From the NCBI GenBank assembly GCA_041691135.1, contig JBEPVF010000002.1, positions 96,001 through 160,000 of the forward strand: a stretch of 64,000 nt of DNA, read 5' to 3'. Position numbers and translations under genes: made by a program. This document shows positions 2,882 through 40,559 of this stretch, one piece after another. The notes below the pieces were generated by a model that worked only from the letters and a program-made list of their open reading frames with translations, had not been told where the DNA came from and ran no database searches. The stretch's first letter is position 1. Every line of letters begins with the position of its first letter. The DNA comes from Candidatus Peribacteria bacterium. Lineage in GTDB: Bacteria > Patescibacteriota > Gracilibacteria > Peribacterales > Peribacteraceae.

Positions 2882-2930
2882 GACGGCAAATTTCCTCTGT
2901 CCGATGCACCCTTTCTGATACTCTTTGCCC

Positions 2931-5900
2931 ATGCCTTTCGACCCCGTCGACCCCAAACAGTCATTGCCCGATATGGAGCGCGGCATTCTGCGCTACTGGC
3001 AGGAGGAAGATACTTTCAAGCGGTCCATCCGCAGCAAGGTCGTCGAGGACGTAAACAAGAAGCGCGAGGACGATCAAAACACGCAGTACAGCTTCTACGA
3101 CGGACCGCCATTCGCCACAGGTTTGCCGCACTACGGACATCTGCTGGCCGGCACTATTAAGGATGTAATCCCGCGTTACCAGACAATGAAGGGCAAACAT
3201 GTGCAGCGCCGGTTCGGCTGGGATTGCCATGGTTTACCGGTCGAGTACGAGATCGAGAAAGCGAATAACCTGACCCGCATAGACATCGAAGAGATGGGTG
3301 TGAAAGCATTCAACGATCTGTGTCGCAGCGTAGTGCAGCGTTACACCAAAGAGTGGCGCGTGACGGTGGAACGCATGGGTCGCTGGGTGGATATGGATTG
3401 GGACTACCGCACGATGGATCCCGAATATATGGAGAGTATCTGGTGGGGGTTCAAGGAGCTGCACAAAAAAGGACTCGTGTACCAAGGCTTCCGTCCGATG
3501 CACATCTGTCCACGTTGCGTGACGCCGCTGAGCAACTTTGAGGTGACGCAGGGATATAAGGAGGTGACGGACTTGTCGGCGGTGGCGAAATTCCTTTTGA
3601 CGGAGGGGACCGATGGAACCGAAGAAACCGAGGAGAAAACATTTTTCTTGGCGTGGACGACGACGCCGTGGACGTTGCCGGGAAATTTATTCTTGGCGGT
3701 GAATCCTGAGGTTGAATACGTTAAATGGAATTGGAATGATGAATTTTTTATTTCTTCAAAAGAATTCTTTAAAGAATGGAAAGAAAAAGGAGCAGGGCAG
3801 TATGCACCAGTCGTAAAACCGGGTCATCATATACCGGAATCGCCTCGCGTCATGCAAGAATACAAAGGAACTGAACTGGTAGGAAAAAATTATGAACCAC
3901 TGTTCCCGTATTTCGCTGATCAATATCCGGATGCGTTCCGCGTAGTAGAAGGTGATTTCGTGACGACGGAGGACGGAACGGGAATCGTGCACATTGCTCC
4001 GGGCTTCGGGGAAGATGACTTCAAGACCGGCCAGCGCGAAAAAGTGAAGATGCTCCAGCATGTGACAATGGACGGAAAGTTCATCAAAGAAGTGACGGAT
4101 TTTTCCGGTATGGAAGTGAAGCCGAAGGACAAGCCGTCAAGCATGGATCAGAAGATCAATGAGTATTTGAAAACGCACGGAACGCTGTTCGAAGAGAAAC
4201 CGTTCCGGCACACGTACCCACACTGCTGGCGCTGCGACTCCCCTCTTCTGAACTACGCGACGTCATCGTGGTTTGTATCGGTCGAAAAGATCAAGGACAA
4301 GATGCTGAAGAACAACGCGAAAACGGAATGGGTGCCGGCGCACATTCGTGACGGGCGGTTCGGGAAGTGGCTCGAGAACGCACACGACTGGTCGGTGTCC
4401 CGCAACCGTTTCTGGGGCACGCCTCTGCCACTGTGGATAAATGACGAGACCGGCGAGATCGAAGCCATCGGCAGCCGCGATGAACTGATTGCCAAAGATC
4501 CGCAGCGCTTTACGAAGCTCACGGTGATCCGTCATGCCGAGAGCGAGGGGAATTTGATACCGATTTATCAGGGTACCGTACCGGGCACATCGCTCTCAAA
4601 AAACGGCATCTCTCAAGCGAAGGAGTTGGCCAAGCTGATGAAGAAAGAACCTGTGCATGTCATCTATACATCGCCGCTCGATCGGGCCAAACAAACGGCT
4701 GACATCGTCGGCAAAGCGGTGAAGACCGAGGTGACCGTCGATGATCGTCTACGCGAAGTATCGTTCGGCGAGTACGAAGGCAAGATGGTCGACTTCAGCG
4801 ACCTGAGTTTTGTAAAAGCCAAGCGTGCCAAGCAGCTGGAAGCCGATGCAGTGGAGAGCATTTACCATTTCCCGGGCATGGAAACGTGGGGCGAAGTGTC
4901 GTCGCGCGTGATGCCGTTCCTGCAGGAAATAATCGAGAAACATAAGGGCGAGCATGTCGTGATCGTGACGCATGCCGATCCCATCCAACACGTGCGACAA
5001 TTCTTCACCGATCAGGAACCTCGCAAACTGGTGAATCAGCCGTATCCGAGCTTTACTGAACCGTACACGTTCTACTGGGATCACCGGACAAACGCGCCGC
5101 TGGATCTGCACAAAGAAATCGTCGATGACATCACGTGGCAGGCCGGCAGCGACGAAAACGCAGTCACACTCACGGTCGTCAGGCACGGCCAGAGTGATTG
5201 GAATATCGACGAACGCATTGCCGGAGCGAGTGACCGACCGTTATCGGATAAAGGTCGCGAGCAGGCAGCCGCATTACGACAAAAATTGAACGCCAACGAC
5301 TACGATGTGATTCTCTCATCTGATTTGGAGCGCACGCTCGAAACGGGGCGCATCGCCACCAGCGGATGGGGCAAGGAAATCGTCGTGGAACCATTGTTCC
5401 GCGAACAGAATCTGGGTGACTGGGAAGGTAAATTGCTGGAAGAAGTACGCAAGGAACATCCGGAGTATTCCGAAAATTTTCTGAAGGACGTGGCAGAAGT
5501 TCCTGGCGGTGAGAATCGCCGCGAGTTCCTCAACCGCGTACGTGAAGCAATCAAGTACCTGCGAGAGAAACACAAAGGCAAGCGCGTGCTGCTCTTCACG
5601 CACCGTCGCTGGATCTCGGGCTTGCGGCACCTGAAACTGGCCGCACCGATCTGGGAACCGCTCGAGAACACGCATCACGAAACTCTCGTCCTGAAGCCAA
5701 CTTTCCGCCGGGTGGGCGATGTGTTCGACTGCTGGGTGGAAAGCGGATCGATGCCGTTCGCACAGAGTCATTATCCATTCGAGAGTGGCCACAAAAAAGA
5801 CGTACCTCCTGGTTTTCCAGCCAACTTCATCGCCGAAGGAATTGATCAGACGCGTGGATGGTTTTATACACTGACGGTATTGGCAACGGCGCTGTTCGAT

Positions 5901-7304
5901 AGTCCGGCATTCCATCATTGTATTGTGAACGGCACGGTGCTGGCGGAGGACGGCAAAAAGATGAGCAAGCGTTTGAAGAATTATCCTGAGCCACTTGTGG
6001 TAGTGGAGAAGCATGGCGCTGATGCGGTACGCTTTGCACTCATGAGTTCACCGGCCGTTCGCGGCGAAGACATGCGCTTTTCCGAAAAAACAGTCGAGGA
6101 GACGGTTCGCAATGTGCTGTTGCCGCTGTGGAATACCTATTCATTCTTCGTCACCTACGCGAACGCAGCCCAGTGGAAACCGAGCATGGAGAGACGTGAA
6201 TCGACGCATCCTTTGGACCGATGGATAAAAGCCGAAGTACAGGACCTGACTAATCGTATGACAGCCCAGCTCGATCGATACGACCTGTCGGCATCATGCG
6301 GCGAACTCGACGAGACGATCGATGCACTCACCAATTGGTATATCCGCCTCTCGCGCCGGCGGTTTGCCGGCAAGTCGGCATTGCAGGAACAGGGGCCTAT
6401 CGAAGGCGCAAAACCCGAGGAGCAAGCTGACGCGCTTGGCACGCTCTACGACGTTCTTGTCACGCTCACTCAGCTGTTAGCACCGTTCTGTCCGTTCATG
6501 ACCGAAGAGATCTACTTGAATTTGGCAGCCGATGACCACGGCTCGGTCCACCTCACGCGCTGGCCCACAACTCGGGCGCTGACGAAAGAAGAGAACGTGA
6601 TCATCGAAAAAAATCGTCTGCTCCGCCGCATCGTCTCACTCGGACTCTCCATTCGTTCGGAAAAGAAAGTGAAAGTACGACAGCCATTGCAACAAGCTCT
6701 CGTTGCCGTTCCGGCGACTCTCCGATCGATCGTGAACATCACATCCGAAGACGTGGCGCTTCTGCGTGACGAGATCAACGTGCGCGAAGTGGAATTCGTG
6801 GACGACCCCGGCAGTTTGGCACAAGCAATTGCGCTGGTGGATGCCAGAAAAGCAGGCCCGCGTTTCGGCGGTGCCGTTCAGGAACTGATTGCCGCCGGTA
6901 AGCGCGGTGAGTTCGAGCAGAAGGGCGACACGATCATCATTGCCGGCAAAGAATTGAGCAAGGAAGAAGCCACCATCGTCTATCGCGGCAAAGACGGGGA
7001 CACAGACAACGTTGCCGCTGATCACGGCGTCGTCGTGAGTCTCGATACGAACATCACTCCCGAACTGCAGCTCGAAGGTAACGCCCGCGATCTGATCCGC
7101 GCGATTCAAAAAGAACGCAAAGAATCGGCACTGCAAATGCAAGATCGAATCAGTCTGAAAATCGAAGGGGCGGATGATGTCGTCCAACTACATAAGAGCC
7201 TGATCGAACGCGAGACCAATGCCACCTTCGGCTCGGCCTCGGGAAGCGAATATGCGGTGGATGTGGAGGGAAAGAAGGTGATGTTTTGGTTTGAGAAGGT
7301 GTGA
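2931..7304 (+). CDS. ileS: Isoleucine--tRNA ligase (type 2) with two inserted histidine-phosphatase domains
   Basis: YDGPPFATGLPHYGH, GWDCHGLP, WTTTPWTLP, GTGIVH, SRNRFWGTPLP, EGIDQTRGWF, KMSKR; inserts carry RHAES and RHGQS motifs. Confidence 0.97.
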   Translation: MPFDPVDPKQSLPDMERGILRYWQEEDTFKRSIRSKVVEDVNKKREDDQNTQYSFYDGPPFATGLPHYGHLLAGTIKDVIPRYQTMKGKHVQRRFGWDCHGLPVEYEIEKANNLTRIDIEEMGVKAFNDLCRSVVQRYTKEWRVTVERMGRWVDMDWDYRTMDPEYMESIWWGFKELHKKGLVYQGFRPMHICPRCVTPLSNFEVTQGYKEVTDLSAVAKFLLTEGTDGTEETEEKTFFLAWTTTPWTLPGNLFLAVNPEVEYVKWNWNDEFFISSKEFFKEWKEKGAGQYAPVVKPGHHIPESPRVMQEYKGTELVGKNYEPLFPYFADQYPDAFRVVEGDFVTTEDGTGIVHIAPGFGEDDFKTGQREKVKMLQHVTMDGKFIKEVTDFSGMEVKPKDKPSSMDQKINEYLKTHGTLFEEKPFRHTYPHCWRCDSPLLNYATSSWFVSVEKIKDKMLKNNAKTEWVPAHIRDGRFGKWLENAHDWSVSRNRFWGTPLPLWINDETGEIEAIGSRDELIAKDPQRFTKLTVIRHAESEGNLIPIYQGTVPGTSLSKNGISQAKELAKLMKKEPVHVIYTSPLDRAKQTADIVGKAVKTEVTVDDRLREVSFGEYEGKMVDFSDLSFVKAKRAKQLEADAVESIYHFPGMETWGEVSSRVMPFLQEIIEKHKGEHVVIVTHADPIQHVRQFFTDQEPRKLVNQPYPSFTEPYTFYWDHRTNAPLDLHKEIVDDITWQAGSDENAVTLTVVRHGQSDWNIDERIAGASDRPLSDKGREQAAALRQKLNANDYDVILSSDLERTLETGRIATSGWGKEIVVEPLFREQNLGDWEGKLLEEVRKEHPEYSENFLKDVAEVPGGENRREFLNRVREAIKYLREKHKGKRVLLFTHRRWISGLRHLKLAAPIWEPLENTHHETLVLKPTFRRVGDVFDCWVESGSMPFAQSHYPFESGHKKDVPPGFPANFIAEGIDQTRGWFYTLTVLATALFDSPAFHHCIVNGTVLAEDGKKMSKRLKNYPEPLVVVEKHGADAVRFALMSSPAVRGEDMRFSEKTVEETVRNVLLPLWNTYSFFVTYANAAQWKPSMERRESTHPLDRWIKAEVQDLTNRMTAQLDRYDLSASCGELDETIDALTNWYIRLSRRRFAGKSALQEQGPIEGAKPEEQADALGTLYDVLVTLTQLLAPFCPFMTEEIYLNLAADDHGSVHLTRWPTTRALTKEENVIIEKNRLLRRIVSLGLSIRSEKKVKVRQPLQQALVAVPATLRSIVNITSEDVALLRDEINVREVEFVDDPGSLAQAIALVDARKAGPRFGGAVQELIAAGKRGEFEQKGDTIIIAGKELSKEEATIVYRGKDGDTDNVAADHGVVVSLDTNITPELQLEGNARDLIRAIQKERKESALQMQDRISLKIEGADDVVQLHKSLIERETNATFGSASGSEYAVDVEGKKVMFWFEKV
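3600..3635 (+). repeat. Degenerate 9-bp tandem repeat (ACCGAnGRA-like x4), in frame inside ileS (TEG-TDG-TEE-TEE)
   Basis: acggagggg accgatgga accgaagaa accgaggag; the same unit occurs at 7307-7342 and 40402-40434. Confidence 0.6.
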
Positions 7305-7306
7305 TG

Positions 7307-7342
7307 TGCGAGGAAACCGACGGAACCGAGGGAACCGAGGAT
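7307..7342 (+). repeat. 9-bp tandem microrepeat (ACCGAnGGA)
   Basis: tgcgaggaa accgacgga accgaggga accgaggat, directly after the ileS stop. Confidence 0.7.
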
Positions 7343-7360
7343 TTTGTTTTTCTGCATTCT

Positions 7361-7596
7361 CACTACTTCCAGGCGGCCCTACGCCGCCCAACCTCTTCGC
7401 CTGCTCGCTATTCCAGGCAAACACTCCTCCGACTATGTGGTGGGGATGAGTGGTTACGAGCCCTGCTGTCGCCAGCCCACAGGCGCGACAGCAGGGCGAG
7501 GTGGGTCATAGGCGGTGCGCTTTCTTTGGTCCTTTCTTTGTCGGGGAGACAAAGAAAGGACACCAGTGGTGATTGGAGAGGTTGGTGCTGGGGAAT
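7361..7596 (+). repeat. Structured intergenic repeat, copy 1 of 3 (~235 nt)
   Basis: Aligns by eye to 18511-18743 and 33813-34050; hairpins ccctgctgtcgc/gcgacagcaggg and gtcctttctttgtc/gacaaagaaaggac. Confidence 0.9.
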
Positions 7597-7751
7597 CATG
7601 AACATCCGCGGGTAGCAAACCCGCTCCCCTAGAGAAAATTGAAGCAAGGAATGATGAAGACATAGAACACAACCGCGCCAAGAGATAGCGCTCTGTAGTA
7701 GCAAAGATACGAGGATTGGAAAATCATCCTCTCTAAGATATCCTACGAACC

Positions 7752-8147
7752 ATGACTGACTCCCGAAACAGGTTATCCGCACCTGCGCGTTTATTCATTC
7801 GTGCGATACTGAATATATTGCTCGTCTGGGCAATGGCGACGTACTTATCTGAATACTTCCTGCTCACTGGCGGCCTTGGCGCTGTCATTATTGTCGGCGC
7901 ACTGCTCACGCTCATGAATGTCATCGTCCGGCCTCTGCTCAAACTTCTGACCCTGCCGCTGCGCCTATTCGCCATGGTCATTGCGCTCATACTGGTGAAC
8001 GGCGTTTTCATTTGGCTCATCTACCAGATTACACAACAAATGGATCCGACAGTCGTGAGACTGCAGATCATAGGCGCTGCCGGGTGGGTAATCGTCAGCG
8101 TCGTGTTCGGCATCGGCAACTGGCTGATAAAGGCTGCTCTCAAATAA
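7752..8147 (+). CDS. 4-TM phage-holin-like (YvlD/DUF360) membrane protein
   Basis: NVIVRPLLKLLTLPL...NG signature; four hydrophobic segments. Confidence 0.8.
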   Translation: MTDSRNRLSAPARLFIRAILNILLVWAMATYLSEYFLLTGGLGAVIIVGALLTLMNVIVRPLLKLLTLPLRLFAMVIALILVNGVFIWLIYQITQQMDPTVVRLQIIGAAGWVIVSVVFGIGNWLIKAALK

Positions 8148-8175
8148 CTCGTCCCGGTATCTCTCGGGTTTTACC

Positions 8176-9459
8176 ATGACTCCTCTTCATGCTCCCAAAG
8201 CCCGGCCGCTGATTCCGCTGTTCATCGCCGTGTTGGTAGACATGCTCGGCGTGGGCGTTTCGATTCCGGTACTCACGGTAGTAATACTGAGTTCACAACA
8301 GGGCATTCTGCCGCCGGACATGCCCTTCGCCCAGCGGTCGATTATTTTTGGGTTCCTCCTGGCCAGTTACCCATTGGCCCAGTTTTTTGGGGCCCCCATT
8401 CTAGGCTCATTGTCCGATCGCTATGGTCGCAAGCCGACGCTGCTGCTCACATTGGCGGGAACCGCAATGGGTTATCTTCTCTTCGCGTTGGGTATCGAAG
8501 CACGGGACCTCACACTCCTATTCGCCTCTCGCTTGCTCGATGGAGTGACAGGCGGGAATATTTCGATTGCCGTTTCGGCCACTGCTGATATCAGTTCAGC
8601 CCATACAAAAGCCAAAAACTTCGGTTTAATAGGAATGGCCTACGGCATGGGTCTCATCTTCGGTCCGTATCTGGGAGGCAAGCTAAGCGACCCTTCAATT
8701 CTGCCGTTCTTCCGCCTTTCGACTCCTTTTATCTTTGCTGCACTGCTGACCATCCTGAATATTGTCCTGTTCCTGCTCTTTTTTAGGGAAACACTGCAAA
8801 ATCGCTCAAGCGCTCGTATTCACTTGTTCACAGGATTCCACAATATCAGTCGGGCATTTCAGCTCAAAGATTTACGGACAATCCTCATCGTGGTGTTTCT
8901 GATCAACTTTGGCTTCAACTTCTTCGTACAGTTTTTCCAGGTCTTCTTGTACCAGAAATTCGCCTACACTCCGGGGCAGATCGGTGATCTGTTTGCCTTC
9001 ACAGGACTCTGGATTGCCGGCGTACAAGGATTTTTGGTCCATCCAGCGACCAAACGCTTTGCTCTGTCGCGCATCCTCGCAGTGTGCACGTTCTTTTTTG
9101 CCGGGACGCTTCTGCTCTTGCTTGTCCCCAATCGACCGGCATACCTCTTCGTCATCCTGCCATTCATGGCGGTGTTCTATGGATTGATGGATGCGACCTC
9201 TACAACCATTGTATCTAATTTGAGTGGAGCGCATGTGCAAGGCGAAATCATCGGTATTAAGCAATCGCTCCAATCATTGGCAACAGCCGTACCACCTATC
9301 CTTGCCGGCTTTGTTGCAACGATGGGTTTACACCTGCCCATTCTGGTCGCCAGTGTGTGTACATTTGCCGCAGGGTTGGTTTTCGTGGTTGGCTTCCGTC
9401 ATAAACATGATCTGACTGATATTGTTCCTACGGAACCGCCAGAGCTGCCCCCGCTATAA
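8176..9459 (+). CDS. MFS transporter, TetA/DHA1-like
   Basis: GSLSDRYGRKP (motif A), SRLLDGVTGGN, GLIFGPYLGG; about 12 TM segments. Confidence 0.9.
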   Translation: MTPLHAPKARPLIPLFIAVLVDMLGVGVSIPVLTVVILSSQQGILPPDMPFAQRSIIFGFLLASYPLAQFFGAPILGSLSDRYGRKPTLLLTLAGTAMGYLLFALGIEARDLTLLFASRLLDGVTGGNISIAVSATADISSAHTKAKNFGLIGMAYGMGLIFGPYLGGKLSDPSILPFFRLSTPFIFAALLTILNIVLFLLFFRETLQNRSSARIHLFTGFHNISRAFQLKDLRTILIVVFLINFGFNFFVQFFQVFLYQKFAYTPGQIGDLFAFTGLWIAGVQGFLVHPATKRFALSRILAVCTFFFAGTLLLLLVPNRPAYLFVILPFMAVFYGLMDATSTTIVSNLSGAHVQGEIIGIKQSLQSLATAVPPILAGFVATMGLHLPILVASVCTFAAGLVFVVGFRHKHDLTDIVPTEPPELPPL

Positions 9460-18151: not shown

Positions 18152-18367
18152 AGAAGCATGCGGAAAGTAGGCGTGATTGTACCTCTCTTCCGAAGAGAAG
18201 AAAGGATGATGAGACGATTTTTTGAATAGTGGTCTTACAACGGAGAAAAGGAGTCAAGAGATTCAGTGGAAAAGATCGCTCCATGAGCATTCGGAAAATG
18301 TTCAGCATGGCGCTGCCGCTTTCTTCGCGGTTGGTCGAAGCTGGTTGATTCATCGTGAGCGCATGCA

Positions 18368-18776
18368 CCCTCACCCCGGCCCTCTCCCTCCTTCCCACGC
18401 CGCAAAGGGAGTGGTGATCGTCTGCTCGTCATGGAACATCAGAAACCTGCCGGGAGAGGGAGATGTATGTTGTGTGTGTGTTGTGCCTAACGAAGCTCTC
18501 TCAAATAGTTCTAGGCGGCCCTAAGCCGCCTAACTTCTTCGCCTGCTCACAATTCCAGACAATGACCCCTCCGCCTATGTGGTGGGGATGAGTGGGTACG
18601 AACTTCCTTGTCGCCGGCCCATAGGCGCGACAAGGAAGTGAGGTGGGTCATAGGCGGTGCGTTTTTCTTTGGTCCTTTCTTTTGTCGCGGGGAGACAAAA
18701 GAAAGGACACCACTGGTGACTGGAGAAGTTTGTGCTGGGGAATACCTCAGACACCGCAGCCGGGGACGGCTGCTAC
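18368..18776 (+). repeat. Structured repeat copy 2 (core 18511-18743) with REP-like flanking palindromes
   Basis: Core matches copies 1 and 3. The 5' CCCTCACCCCGGCCCTCTCCC...GGGAGAGGG and 3' gcagccggggacggctgctac segments are shared with copy 3. Confidence 0.88.
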
Positions 18777-25022: not shown

Positions 25023-25434
25023 GGGGATGAAAGGCTTCGACAGCGTGACTCTAATTTGGTCCGCCTCGACTCGGGATGGCGACGGTTCCCGTTACCCACT
25101 TGTCGCAACCAATAGATGCCAAAACATCTGTTTCTGAGCGCCTGAAGACCGTTGGTCGTTTTGCACAATCTGTGCAGAATGCCTTCGCTGTCCCAGCGTT
25201 CGCTTAGTTTCCTCTTTTGGAAACACGTTTCGCCCTCGATTCTCGCTGAAGGGATGAAACGTCATCAGCGGGACGACGCGCTTGTCTGATGTCGCAAGCG
25301 TTCGTATTCCGACATCAACACTCACTCTCCCTCTTTGATTTTTTCTGAGGAGATGTGAGAATTGAAAAGATCATGGTCGTATGGGCAATCAGGTTACACG
25401 TTGGACCCGGGTTCAAGTCCCGGCATCTCCACCA
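25023..25434 (+). ncRNA. ssrA: tmRNA; predicted tag frame 25118-25207 (AKTSVSERLKTVGRFAQSVQNAFAVPAFA*)
   Basis: 5' GGGGATGAAAGGCTTCGAC; 3' T-arm CCGGGTTCAAGTCCCGG and acceptor CATCTCCACCA with a G3:U pair; internal frame ends AFA-stop. Confidence 0.92.
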
Positions 25435-33686: not shown

Positions 33687-34202
33687 CCCTCACCCCGGCC
33701 CTCTCCCTCCGCCCCCTGTCGCTAAGGAAGATTTGGTCATTCGTTCGTGACTGAACACCACAGACCTGCAGGGAGAGGGAGGTGTATATGTTTTGTTTAC
33801 GCGAAGCCCCTTCACTACACCCAGGCGGCTAGAGGCTGCCAAGCCTCTTCGCACGTTCGCTATTCCAGGTAATAGTCCCTCCGCCTATGTGGTGGGGATA
33901 GGTGGTTACGAGCACTCCTGTCGCATGCCCATAGGCGCGACAGCAGGGCGAGGTGGGTCATAGGCGGTGCGTTTTTCTTTGGTACTTTCTTTTGTCGCGG
34001 GGAGACAAAAGAAAGGACACCACTAGTGACTGGGAAGGTTCGTGCAGGCAAACATCTCAGCACCGCGCCGAGTTACGGCGCTCTGCGTGTGAAGGATGTG
34101 TTTGATCATCGCTCAGACACCGCAGCCGAGGACGGCTGCTGCTACGGGTGAGGGTGAAGGGTGAGCATACGCGGGTGTCCTTCGACTCCGCTCAGGATGA
34201 CA
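33687..34202 (+). repeat. Structured repeat copy 3 (core 33813-34050) within a mosaic of REP-like palindromes
   Basis: Core matches copies 1 and 2; extra hairpin/REP-like units at about 34065-34085, 34122-34145 and 34177-34202. Confidence 0.88.
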
Positions 34203-40484: not shown

Positions 40485-40559
40485 TCCCCTGTAGCTCAAT
40501 GGTAGAGCATCTCGCTGTTAACGAGAGGGTTACTGGTTCGAGTCCAGTCGGGGGAGCCA
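40485..40559 (+). tRNA. tRNA-Asn (GTT)
   Basis: Acceptor TCCCCTG/CGGGGGA, D-arm GCTC/GAGC, anticodon arm TCTCG-CTGTTAA-CGAGA, T-arm ACTGG-TTCGAGT-CCAGT, encoded CCA. Confidence 0.97.

Follow-up and report, generated by a model that had tools for sequence, protein, structure and literature searches.

The repeats that come closest in function to the element treated here are the REP/BIME/REPIN sequences and the repeats derived from IS200/IS605. REP/BIME and REPIN-RAYT sequences, known from E. coli and Pseudomonas, are intergenic and multi-copy, form hairpins with compensatory base changes and occur in mosaics with other modules. Their unit is a palindrome of 20–40 nt or an inverted doublet. The GTAG tag is given as a mark of the REP super-family in PMC3733652. 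IS200/IS605 elements and PATE repeats have a strand orientation that is related to replication, structure on one strand, and hairpins near both ends. For IS608 and ISDra2 the target is the lagging-strand template, according to PMC6006769.

Other structured sequences invite comparison as well. Integron attC sites are folded sites on single-stranded DNA in which unpaired features are conserved and a paired region varies, and their orientation relative to replication is of consequence. The pneumococcal BOX, neisserial Correia and enterobacterial ERIC elements are often co-transcribed with their neighbours, and their mobiliser is either unknown or encoded in trans; we know of no report of strict replication polarity for them. 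Triple helices of the ENE/MALAT1 type protect the 3′ ends of RNAs.

The DNA analysed here, termed the window, is a stretch of 64,000 nt (contig C2, positions 96001–160000) from a Candidatus Peribacteria genome of 1.74 Mb in 35 contigs. It contains a non-coding repeat of about 235 nt, which is the local long form of a multi-copy non-coding element spread through one Peribacteria (CPR) family. The element shares with REP/BIME and REPIN-RAYT sequences the intergenic, multi-copy occurrence, the hairpins with compensatory changes and the mosaics with other modules, and its core adjoins GTAG-tagged REPs whose RAYT genes occur in the genome. It differs in that the core has 95–240 nt, four to six helices and conserved junctions, does not flank RAYT genes, and does not co-occur with Y1 genes over 151 genomes. 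Replication-related orientation, one-strand structure and hairpins near both ends of the core-plus-REP unit recall IS200/IS605 and PATE sequences, but TnpA(Y1) is missing from 46 of the 114 element-bearing genomes, TnpB is absent and no clear-cut ends are seen. In addition, the lagging-strand template would be expected to carry the antisense strand, whereas wobble pairs favour the sense strand. Thus, despite being the closest in function, these two groups differ from the element in unit type, in transposase flanking and in co-occurrence.

As in attC, there is a folded single strand with conserved unpaired features, variable pairing and an orientation relative to replication; attC sites, however, are found in cassette arrays beside intI, whereas the Peribacteria element is dispersed singly and no attC-like core motifs were seen in it. 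Like BOX, Correia and ERIC, it is modular, structured, dispersed and in the range of 100–250 nt, but those elements carry terminal inverted repeats or box modules, and the Peribacteria element has no Rfam match. A pyrimidine tract that would run parallel to the purine arm of a hairpin resembles H-DNA mirror repeats and ENE/MALAT1 caps. The difference is that it lies within a dispersed bacterial repeat and that the other strand would give a purine-motif triplex.

No description of the element was found in the literature searched. Term searches in PMC4736985 brought up short repeats near the origin and a single direct repeat but nothing else of this kind, and those in a 2026 preprint (10.64898/2026.09.22.753630) gave no mention of these taxa.

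The preferred reading, to which a probability of about one half is assigned, is that of a non-autonomous repeat acting as single-stranded DNA. The element would act as DNA and probably be mobile: a folded single strand would be recognised during replication, new copies would land between genes, always turned the same way with respect to the moving fork, and the youngest copies would have moved, or been converted, as a core-plus-REP block. The single-stranded intermediate, the enzyme-driven mobility and the triple helix discussed below are what we infer; the family with its folds and covariation, the orientation linked to replication, the empty orthologous sites, the REP hairpins next to the core and the missing co-occurrence with Y1, RT, IS110 and TnpB genes are direct results. 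An initial annotation of the window had named a structured RNA and a mobile single-stranded element side by side; of the two, the non-autonomous single-stranded element is preferred here and the RNA is given lower weight.

Copies of the repeat and their flanking modules

Three copies were annotated in the window, all on the + strand, and all three are present with a mean column identity of 83%. Copy 1 is at 7361–7596 (236 nt), copy 2 at 18503–18743 (241 nt) and copy 3 at 33813–34053 (241 nt). The start originally given for copy 2, 18511, is 8 nt inside the element. The central stem of copy 3 has two mismatches and its 5′ hairpin one G:T pair. The description as a three-copy element did not hold, as 36 nhmmer matches in the whole genome merge into 35 loci on 13 contigs, and the family is found in 114 of 151 related genomes. 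Twenty-two of the 35 loci are near full length, with cores of 236–276 nt and several different helices, and several loci are truncated at contig ends. In one public DNA run of the assembled contigs, analysed over positions 5400–9400, depth is about 190 on the repeat vs about 18 on the flanks, i.e. about ten-fold; neither joints nor an empty-site allele were found in the same run and interval.

Copy 1 follows the gene of a 1459-aa class I synthetase and copy 3 that of AlaRS, which bears out the remark that two copies lie 3′ of aminoacyl-tRNA synthetase genes. This position is incidental, and the orientation of copies relative to flanking genes is mixed. A coding function of the repeat was considered and rejected, as open reading frames are not conserved across copies and indels are not multiples of three.

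The sequence upstream of the core is either of two modules. Module B, a degenerate tandem repeat of about 9–10 nt, is found between the stop codon and copy 1 (7310–7341, + strand). Module A is 5′ of copy 2 (18367–18490, + strand), where it consists of a hairpin with arms CCCTCTCCC (18380–18388) and GGGAGAGGG (18452–18460) and a TG-rich tail. The module A hairpin 5′ of copy 3 is at 33699–33779 (+ strand), with arms at 33699–33707 and 33771–33779. A regular expression for module A gives 17 matches, 14 upstream of the core and three solo.

Nearly every copy has a small GC-rich hairpin on its 3′ side, classed as type C, D or E. These hairpins are short tagged palindromes of the REP kind; the core is not. 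Those next to the three copies of the window are on the + strand. Directly 3′ of copy 1 is a type C hairpin (7606–7624), and further on there is a second REP-type hairpin, of type E and followed by CTGTAG (7673–7698), which is of the kind flanking the RAYT gene on contig C5. Copy 2 is followed by a type D hairpin (18754–18773), the same sequence of which, inverted, flanks the RAYT gene on contig C1. Copy 3 is followed by a type E hairpin (34063–34081) and then by a second REP of type D with TGCTAC after it (34120–34145). By regular expression, all eight type C matches are 3′ of the core. Type D has 13 matches, with 11 directly 3′ of the core, two flanking a RAYT gene and none elsewhere, and type E has 11 non-genic matches, with six 3′ of the core, four flanking RAYT genes and one elsewhere.

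The stretch 7360–7627, which comprises the core of copy 1 and its type C REP, is 96.6% identical to a copy on contig C9 and 91.6% identical to one on C1, although the upstream modules differ between copy 1 and these two copies. The youngest unit to be copied or converted is therefore the core plus the REP.

The association with REPs raises the question of whether the element is a BIME/REPIN-like composite driven by RAYTs, in which a Y1 HUH protein would act on the GTAG-tagged REP and on a CTAC-tagged GGCGGC hairpin and move the two together as a single-stranded unit in the style of IS200/IS605. Three RAYT-like Y1 proteins with an HUH-type motif and a YIHxNP motif are encoded in the genome, and each gene is between inverted type D or E hairpins in the order GTAG-hairpin, gene, hairpin-CTAC. 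CTAC precedes the 5′ hairpin of the element in 19 of 22 copies (17 CACTAC and 2 AACTAC) and also follows many REPs. Such a composite would be in keeping with the near confinement of other REPs to the 3′ side of the core in one orientation, with the core-plus-REP block shared by the most recent copies, and with the lagging-strand template as a target of IS608 and ISDra2 (PMC6006769).

Against it, the similarity between copies extends about 8–10 nt upstream of CTAC, into flanks that are themselves repeats, so that CTAC would not be the edge of the element. Three different kinds of REP are seen behind a single core type, and the core never flanks a RAYT gene, neither the three RAYT-like genes of this genome nor the two RAYT loci of a relative (G014). 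With the family-wide data described below, a RAYT-driven composite appears improbable. The IS200-like gene on contig C8 is bordered by hairpins of another kind, and blastn shows no similarity between it and the core.

Fold, covariation and the pyrimidine tract

In copy 1 (+ strand) the 5′ hairpin GGCGGC/GCCGCC is at 7372–7388, as annotated, and the counterpart in copy 3 with its G:T pair had also been recognised. A closing helix, P1, pairs 7429–7437 with 7507–7515 and encloses G-rich junction strands and the central hairpin P3 (7460–7497, arms 7460–7472 and 7485–7497). It is followed by a pyrimidine tract (7520–7527), a GG linker and the long hairpin P4, with arms at 7530–7542 and 7548–7560. 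The enclosing pair CCGCCTATG/CATAGGCGG is correct for copies 2 and 3, but copy 1 has CCGACTATG and hence one mismatch. Copy 1 lacks one base pair of the long hairpin, as had been seen. The inner stem was likewise read correctly in copies 1 and 2, where both arms have changed, but the 5′ arm of copy 3 has two mismatches to its 3′ arm.

Alignment of the 22 near full-length copies supports the view that selection preserves a single-stranded structure. Of the cells assigned to helices, 95.6% are paired vs 87.4% in shuffled alignments, and none of 500 shuffles is as high. Fifteen pairs are altered on both sides, which is also not equalled in 500 shuffles, and when partners are shifted by 1–3 columns, pairing drops to 43–57% of cells. 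Folding z-scores are −5.1 for the + strand as RNA and −6.0 for the − strand as DNA.

The compensatory changes are unevenly distributed. In P3 both sides have changed in 11 of 13 pairs, with 98.6% of cells paired, and in P4 in four of 15 pairs. None of the nine pairs of P1 has changed on both sides, and there are uncompensated changes; nor has any of the six pairs of the 5′ hairpin, whose stem is invariant while its loops vary. Compensation, claimed for the stems in general, is therefore a property of the central and long hairpins in this genome, as the closing helix covaries solely between genera and the 5′ hairpin never does. At least six versions of the central stem, unrelated to one another but each self-complementary, exist in this genome; the relative G004 adds a seventh. 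Variant blocks are shuffled among copies, and one copy at a contig end combines the arms of two stem versions. An internal deletion is seen in one copy and a 34-nt insertion in five.

End-to-end pairing of tccag with ctgga, and of gcacg with cgtgc in copy 3, was not borne out: a scan of all column pairs gave no long-range helix with compensatory change. Alternative pairings of the G-rich strands proposed by RNAalifold were set aside, as they rest on invariant columns.

The tract 3′ of the closing helix mirrors the loop-proximal 7–9 nt of the pyrimidine arm of the long hairpin. Placed parallel to the purine arm, it has T opposite A and C opposite G. It varies in step with the hairpin in at least six variants, among them TCTCTTT, TTCTCTTT, TTCTTTT(T), TTTCTTTT and TTTTCTTT. 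The match between tract and hairpin is 6.85 vs 6.30 ± 0.06 when tracts are permuted among sequences, and none of 2000 permutations is as high. Of 60 combinations of tract and arm, 20 have a mirror match that exceeds the direct match in length, 30 have matches of equal length, and in 10 the direct match is the longer one; these last 10 all have a symmetric TTTCTTT core plus a conserved C. Judged from sequence, these properties are compatible with a tract that could lie in the major groove of P4 as a triple helix, and the symmetry would allow a purine-motif triplex on the opposite strand. The element would then represent a natural hairpin-plus-mirror-repeat (triplex) design with three-way covariation.

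A fold of this kind might also be that of an RNA. The element might be a multi-copy structured RNA gene or a component of an RNP, with each copy transcribed by itself and the variable hairpins drifting while staying paired; the closing helix, the G-rich junctions and a 3′ hairpin capped by a triplex would make the RNA stable. The triple helix would protect the RNA end in the manner of ENE/MALAT1-type elements. Four to five helices covary between genera while the junction strands are invariant. Wobbles also favour the sense strand: G:U exceeds C:A by 9 to 4 in the first alignment of this genome, and in 27 long forms from about 15 genera the P1–P4 cells comprise 958 Watson–Crick pairs, 11 G:T and 4 A:C, although the sequences are related and the counts small.

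The same tally speaks for DNA in another respect. The helices are almost purely Watson–Crick, and a G:U content of about 1% of cells is low for RNA. The sense-strand excess of wobbles is nevertheless at odds with the single-stranded DNA reading, as the lagging-strand template would expose the antisense strand, with the same reservation as to small counts and related sequences. No promoter-like or terminator-like sites frame copies 1 and 2 in a promoter and terminator scan, which does not favour self-transcribed copies. Among RNA runs, none covers positions 6600–8400. A structured RNA is considered a possibility of secondary weight, clearly less probable than the single-stranded DNA element, which itself has to account for a multi-helix fold and purine-rich junctions kept in 60 or more genera. 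These resemble an RNA or RNP, and the ends of known single-stranded DNA transposons are typically simple hairpins.

Family-wide distribution, empty sites and candidate mobilisers

A covariance model of the 3′ module (R2, 76 positions) matches 114 of the family's 151 genomes, which belong to 61 of its 84 genera; a matching genome has from 1 to 31 or more matches, and often 15 to 31 or more. There is no R2 match in 37 of the 151 genomes. Outside the family, only weak matches were found, in nine of 135 genomes of a class sample. Full-length relatives of the 235-nt form are limited to this genome and G004 among the 41 genomes searched.

In the body shared by the family, a GC-rich closing helix with covariation between genera is combined with two G-rich junction strands, one to three hairpins of variable sequence (P2, P2a, P3), and the pyrimidine tract with the long hairpin. 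The junction strands in other genera read CGGGGGGTGAAGGGG(AAGG) and (CC)GGGNGGAG... Short forms of about 95 nt have nothing between these strands. Long forms of about 180–195 nt have helices P2, P2a and P3 there, where the junctions CGACGA and GAGGAG are conserved and a loop reads GAAnCCTTGnA; in the 27 long forms every helix has several pair types per position. A short form whose closing helix is CCTATG/CATAGG, as in the genome studied here, occurs in G149 and G020. In the genus studied here, the element has acquired a 5′ extension that carries the GGCGGC hairpin, and it is physically coupled to REP hairpins of the GTAG type that belong to three RAYT genes.

The element was annotated as unnamed, and comparison with Rfam gave no family. 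With Rfam 15 at the gathering threshold, the whole window yields tmRNA and one tRNA only, with nothing on the repeat; copy 1 at E ≤ 10 gives microRNA and sRNA matches at chance level only, and ten loci from other genera give nothing on the element at E ≤ 0.1.

Genomes of CPR bacteria are tiny and have little spare DNA. Most genera of this family nevertheless carry an elaborate replication-directed fold whose copies can number in the dozens, which is of interest under any of the explanations. If the element is mobile, its mobiliser could be a new single-strand DNA enzyme; as a host signal or an RNA, it would have a family-wide function so far undescribed.

Copy number varies more than 30-fold and a quarter of the family lacks the element, which favours the single-stranded DNA element; a range from 0 to 31 or more copies among sister genera would be unusual for a structured RNA gene. 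Empty sites point in the same direction. The loci of copies 1 and 3 are syntenic in G002, G003, G004 and G014, and all four relatives lack the core, as would be looked for if it had been gained or lost. Spacers at the copy 1 locus are about 20–236 nt in relatives vs 447 nt here, and at the copy 3 locus about 40–135 nt vs 592 nt. Flanking proteins of the compared loci are 50–75% identical, so exact junctions are unreadable. These empty orthologous sites, together with the near-identical blocks within the genome, argue for a mobile repeat, and the empty sites count against an RNA gene. In G004 the orthologous loci carry REP-like hairpins without the core, which goes against a RAYT composite of the two.

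On the other side, insertion polymorphism between close strains, target duplication and clean ends could not be demonstrated. A metagenome scan with a 426-aa protein encoded between two copies on contig C7 found no close strain, the nearest relative having 57% identity. Across the 22 aligned copies with 60-nt flanks, no terminal inverted repeats or target-site duplication are visible at the edges. The copies of G149, which has a complete genome, are of two types, with P2a and P3 widely divergent and pairing kept. Divergent copies with a preserved structure are what a structured RNA would show, and they also fit a host function for which every copy is under purifying selection, both of which detract from the single-stranded DNA reading.

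The window has no match to a Y1 transposase or an RT, as was stated at the outset, and all such matches of the genome are on contigs C1, C5, C8, C11 and C28. A linked HUH/RAYT gene had been proposed as something to look for; the genome does contain RAYT genes, but across the family their presence does not follow that of the element. Over 151 genomes, 68 have both the element and Y1_Tnp, 46 the element only, 28 Y1_Tnp only and nine neither (odds ratio 0.48, p = 0.11), i.e. there is no positive association. Fifteen of 31 high-copy genomes have no Y1 match. RAYT was thus rejected as the mobiliser of the whole family, as it does not co-occur with the element and many high-copy genomes are Y1-free, which also weighs against the RAYT composite. 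RT, IS110 and TnpB were rejected as well, as they are found in two, none and none, respectively, of five high-copy Y1-free genomes. No matches to Y1, RT, IS110 or TnpB were found in G149, G072 and G118, and TnpB is absent from the genome studied here.

That no transposase tracks the element favours a structured RNA, and the occurrence of the element in genomes without a recognisable transposase would suit a host signal. The single-stranded DNA reading is weakened by the mobiliser that was not found and by the odds ratio of 0.48. Perhaps the element is a replication-strand-specific fold, made up of a closing helix, G-rich junctions and a triplex-capped hairpin, that is copied or read by an enzyme outside Y1/RAYT, TnpB, IS110 and RT, and so belongs to a previously undescribed class; this is offered tentatively, with odds well below even. 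If true, bacteria with minimal genomes would have either a transposition chemistry of a new kind or a DNA signal linked to the replisome.

Orientation and replication polarity

All copies on a given contig share one orientation, and this applies to each of the 13 contigs. At 30 of the 35 loci, and on 12 of the 13 contigs, the sense strand of the element is the C-rich one. In the 1.25-Mb genome of G149, 12 of 12 sites agree, with two on the − strand in the half with positive skew and ten on the + strand in the half with negative skew, and third-codon GC skew agrees with site orientation. In G014, 11 of 13 sites agree and both exceptions are at |skew| < 0.01. Orientation is coherent by contig in G043 and G072 also.

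In the genome studied here, tRNA genes are divided 22:22 and coding bases 51:49 between the strands. The genes flanking the 22 full copies are both opposite to the element in 11 cases and both in the same direction in six, with same/opposite in three, opposite/same in one and opposite/none in one. With no strand bias of tRNA genes or coding sequence and with mixed flanking genes, the orientation bias is not transcriptional; it tracks replication and not neighbouring genes. A strict replication polarity where tRNA and protein genes have none is a strong point in favour of the single-stranded DNA element. For an RNA gene a replication-fixed orientation is unexpected, and with the supported polarity every copy would be transcribed head-on to the fork.

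The leading strand usually has an excess of G over C and of T over A. By this rule the sense strand of the element is likely the lagging strand. Clusters of DnaA boxes are found at the switches to which the elements point, in G149 at about 1,075.7 kb (a further box besides two perfect ones) and in G044 at about 1,160 kb (six boxes). The S10 operon is on the G-rich strand in three of three genomes and rpoC in two of two informative ones. The lagging-strand assignment rests on the skew rule, the DnaA boxes, the S10 operon and rpoC, while dnaA and 16S point the opposite way: dnaA is near the opposite skew switch in three of three genomes, and the single 16S gene is oriented like the elements in three of three. 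The partial conflict of these markers counts against the single-stranded DNA reading. ParB is absent as a polarity marker from two of three genomes, and tRNA orientation is uninformative.

A strict strand polarity in three genera, including one complete genome, might also be that of a host signal linked to replication. The element would then be a site where a protein of the replisome, of repair or of recombination recognises the folded single strand on one of the templates; it would be under selection in each copy and would not be selfish. The junction sequences conserved throughout the family and the mirror-plus-inverted repeat design fit such a role. It is harder to reconcile with the 37 of 151 family genomes that lack the element and with the more than 30-fold range of copy number. 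The sites are unevenly distributed, ten of the 12 in G149 being in one replichore, the near-identical blocks within the genome suggest recent copying, and no partner protein is known. A host signal is thus regarded as unlikely, and the non-autonomous single-stranded DNA element stays the preferred reading.

Whatever its function, the element marks replichores in fragmented Peribacteria assemblies and explains contig breaks there. In both G149 and G044, a copy is found about 1 kb downstream of the 16S gene and in the same orientation, a placement that a structured RNA would accommodate.

Genes and repeats around the element copies

Upstream of copy 1 of the structured non-coding element lies a gene for a class I aminoacyl-tRNA synthetase of 1459 aa (window 2925–7304, + strand) with tRNA-synt_1, Anticodon_1 and DUF5915 domains; orthologues of 1465–1553 aa are present in four related genomes (G002, G003, G004 and G014). 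Two His_Phos_1 (histidine-phosphatase) stretches interrupt the middle of the 1459-aa protein. Rfam matches within the window are limited to a 412-nt tmRNA gene (25023–25434) and one tRNA gene (40485–40556).

In several genomes of this Peribacteria family, some stop codons are directly followed by degenerate short tandem repeats of 8–10 nt. The example in the window (7310–7341) has GAGGAAnCCGAnGG-like units, and others are found at loci L052 and L048 of G004 and L054 of G014. Units in other family genomes are GTCTTGAGT-like, CCCTATTCC-like or GTTTATTGG-like; all these units, including that in the window, are unrelated to one another.

Module A, which occurs in 17 copies, is a distinct hairpin repeat with arms CCCTCTCCC...GGGAGAGGG and a TG-rich tail; it is found in the window at 18367–18490 and 33699–33779. 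Three copies are solo, and each of these is followed by another repeat, module F (GTCCTTCC...GGGCGGATGG). Further sites of modules A and F in the genome of the window (G000) are at C2:258039, C3:103477 and C12:44037, and module F is also present, in inverted orientation, upstream of the element copy at C4:19852.

Y1 transposase genes

Three RAYT-like Y1 genes are found in G000 (C1:268316–268753, C11:30499–30903 and C5:61756–62229), with inverted GTAG-type REP hairpins on their flanks, together with one IS200-like Y1 gene that has its own hairpins (C8:12894–13331). Many other members of the family also carry RAYT-like genes; a Y1_Tnp match was present in 96 of the 151 genomes, with a maximum of 10 per genome.

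Element surroundings and gene orientation in related genomes

In two genera one copy of the element is situated about 1 kb downstream of the 16S rRNA 3′ end and in the orientation of the 16S gene (G149 C1:1,022,351; G044 C1:1,091,339). The sequence between the two in G149 appears to be coding and is Lys/Glu-rich. At several loci of these genomes (G149 L231–L242; G044 L211, L223 and L228) an A/C-rich low-complexity tract of 30–70 nt (ACAAACAAC-like) lies upstream of the element, whereas the upstream tail of the G000 element is T/G-rich on the same strand.

Two different element types are also seen as adjacent inverted pairs, 25–250 nt apart (L010 1400–1576 in G020; L065 and L068 in G014), and only at these pairs do opposite element orientations lie side by side.

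On contig C1 of G149, G044 and G087, the DnaA-box cluster and the skew minimum are both distant from dnaA, which is near the opposite skew switch. In all three genomes the single 16S rRNA gene is 55–70 kb from the inferred origin and is oriented towards it (head-on), unlike the S10 operon and rpoC, which are co-directional. Gene orientation across the whole G000 genome shows essentially no replication-strand bias: of all coding bases, 51% are on the G-rich strand, as are 22 of the 44 tRNA genes.
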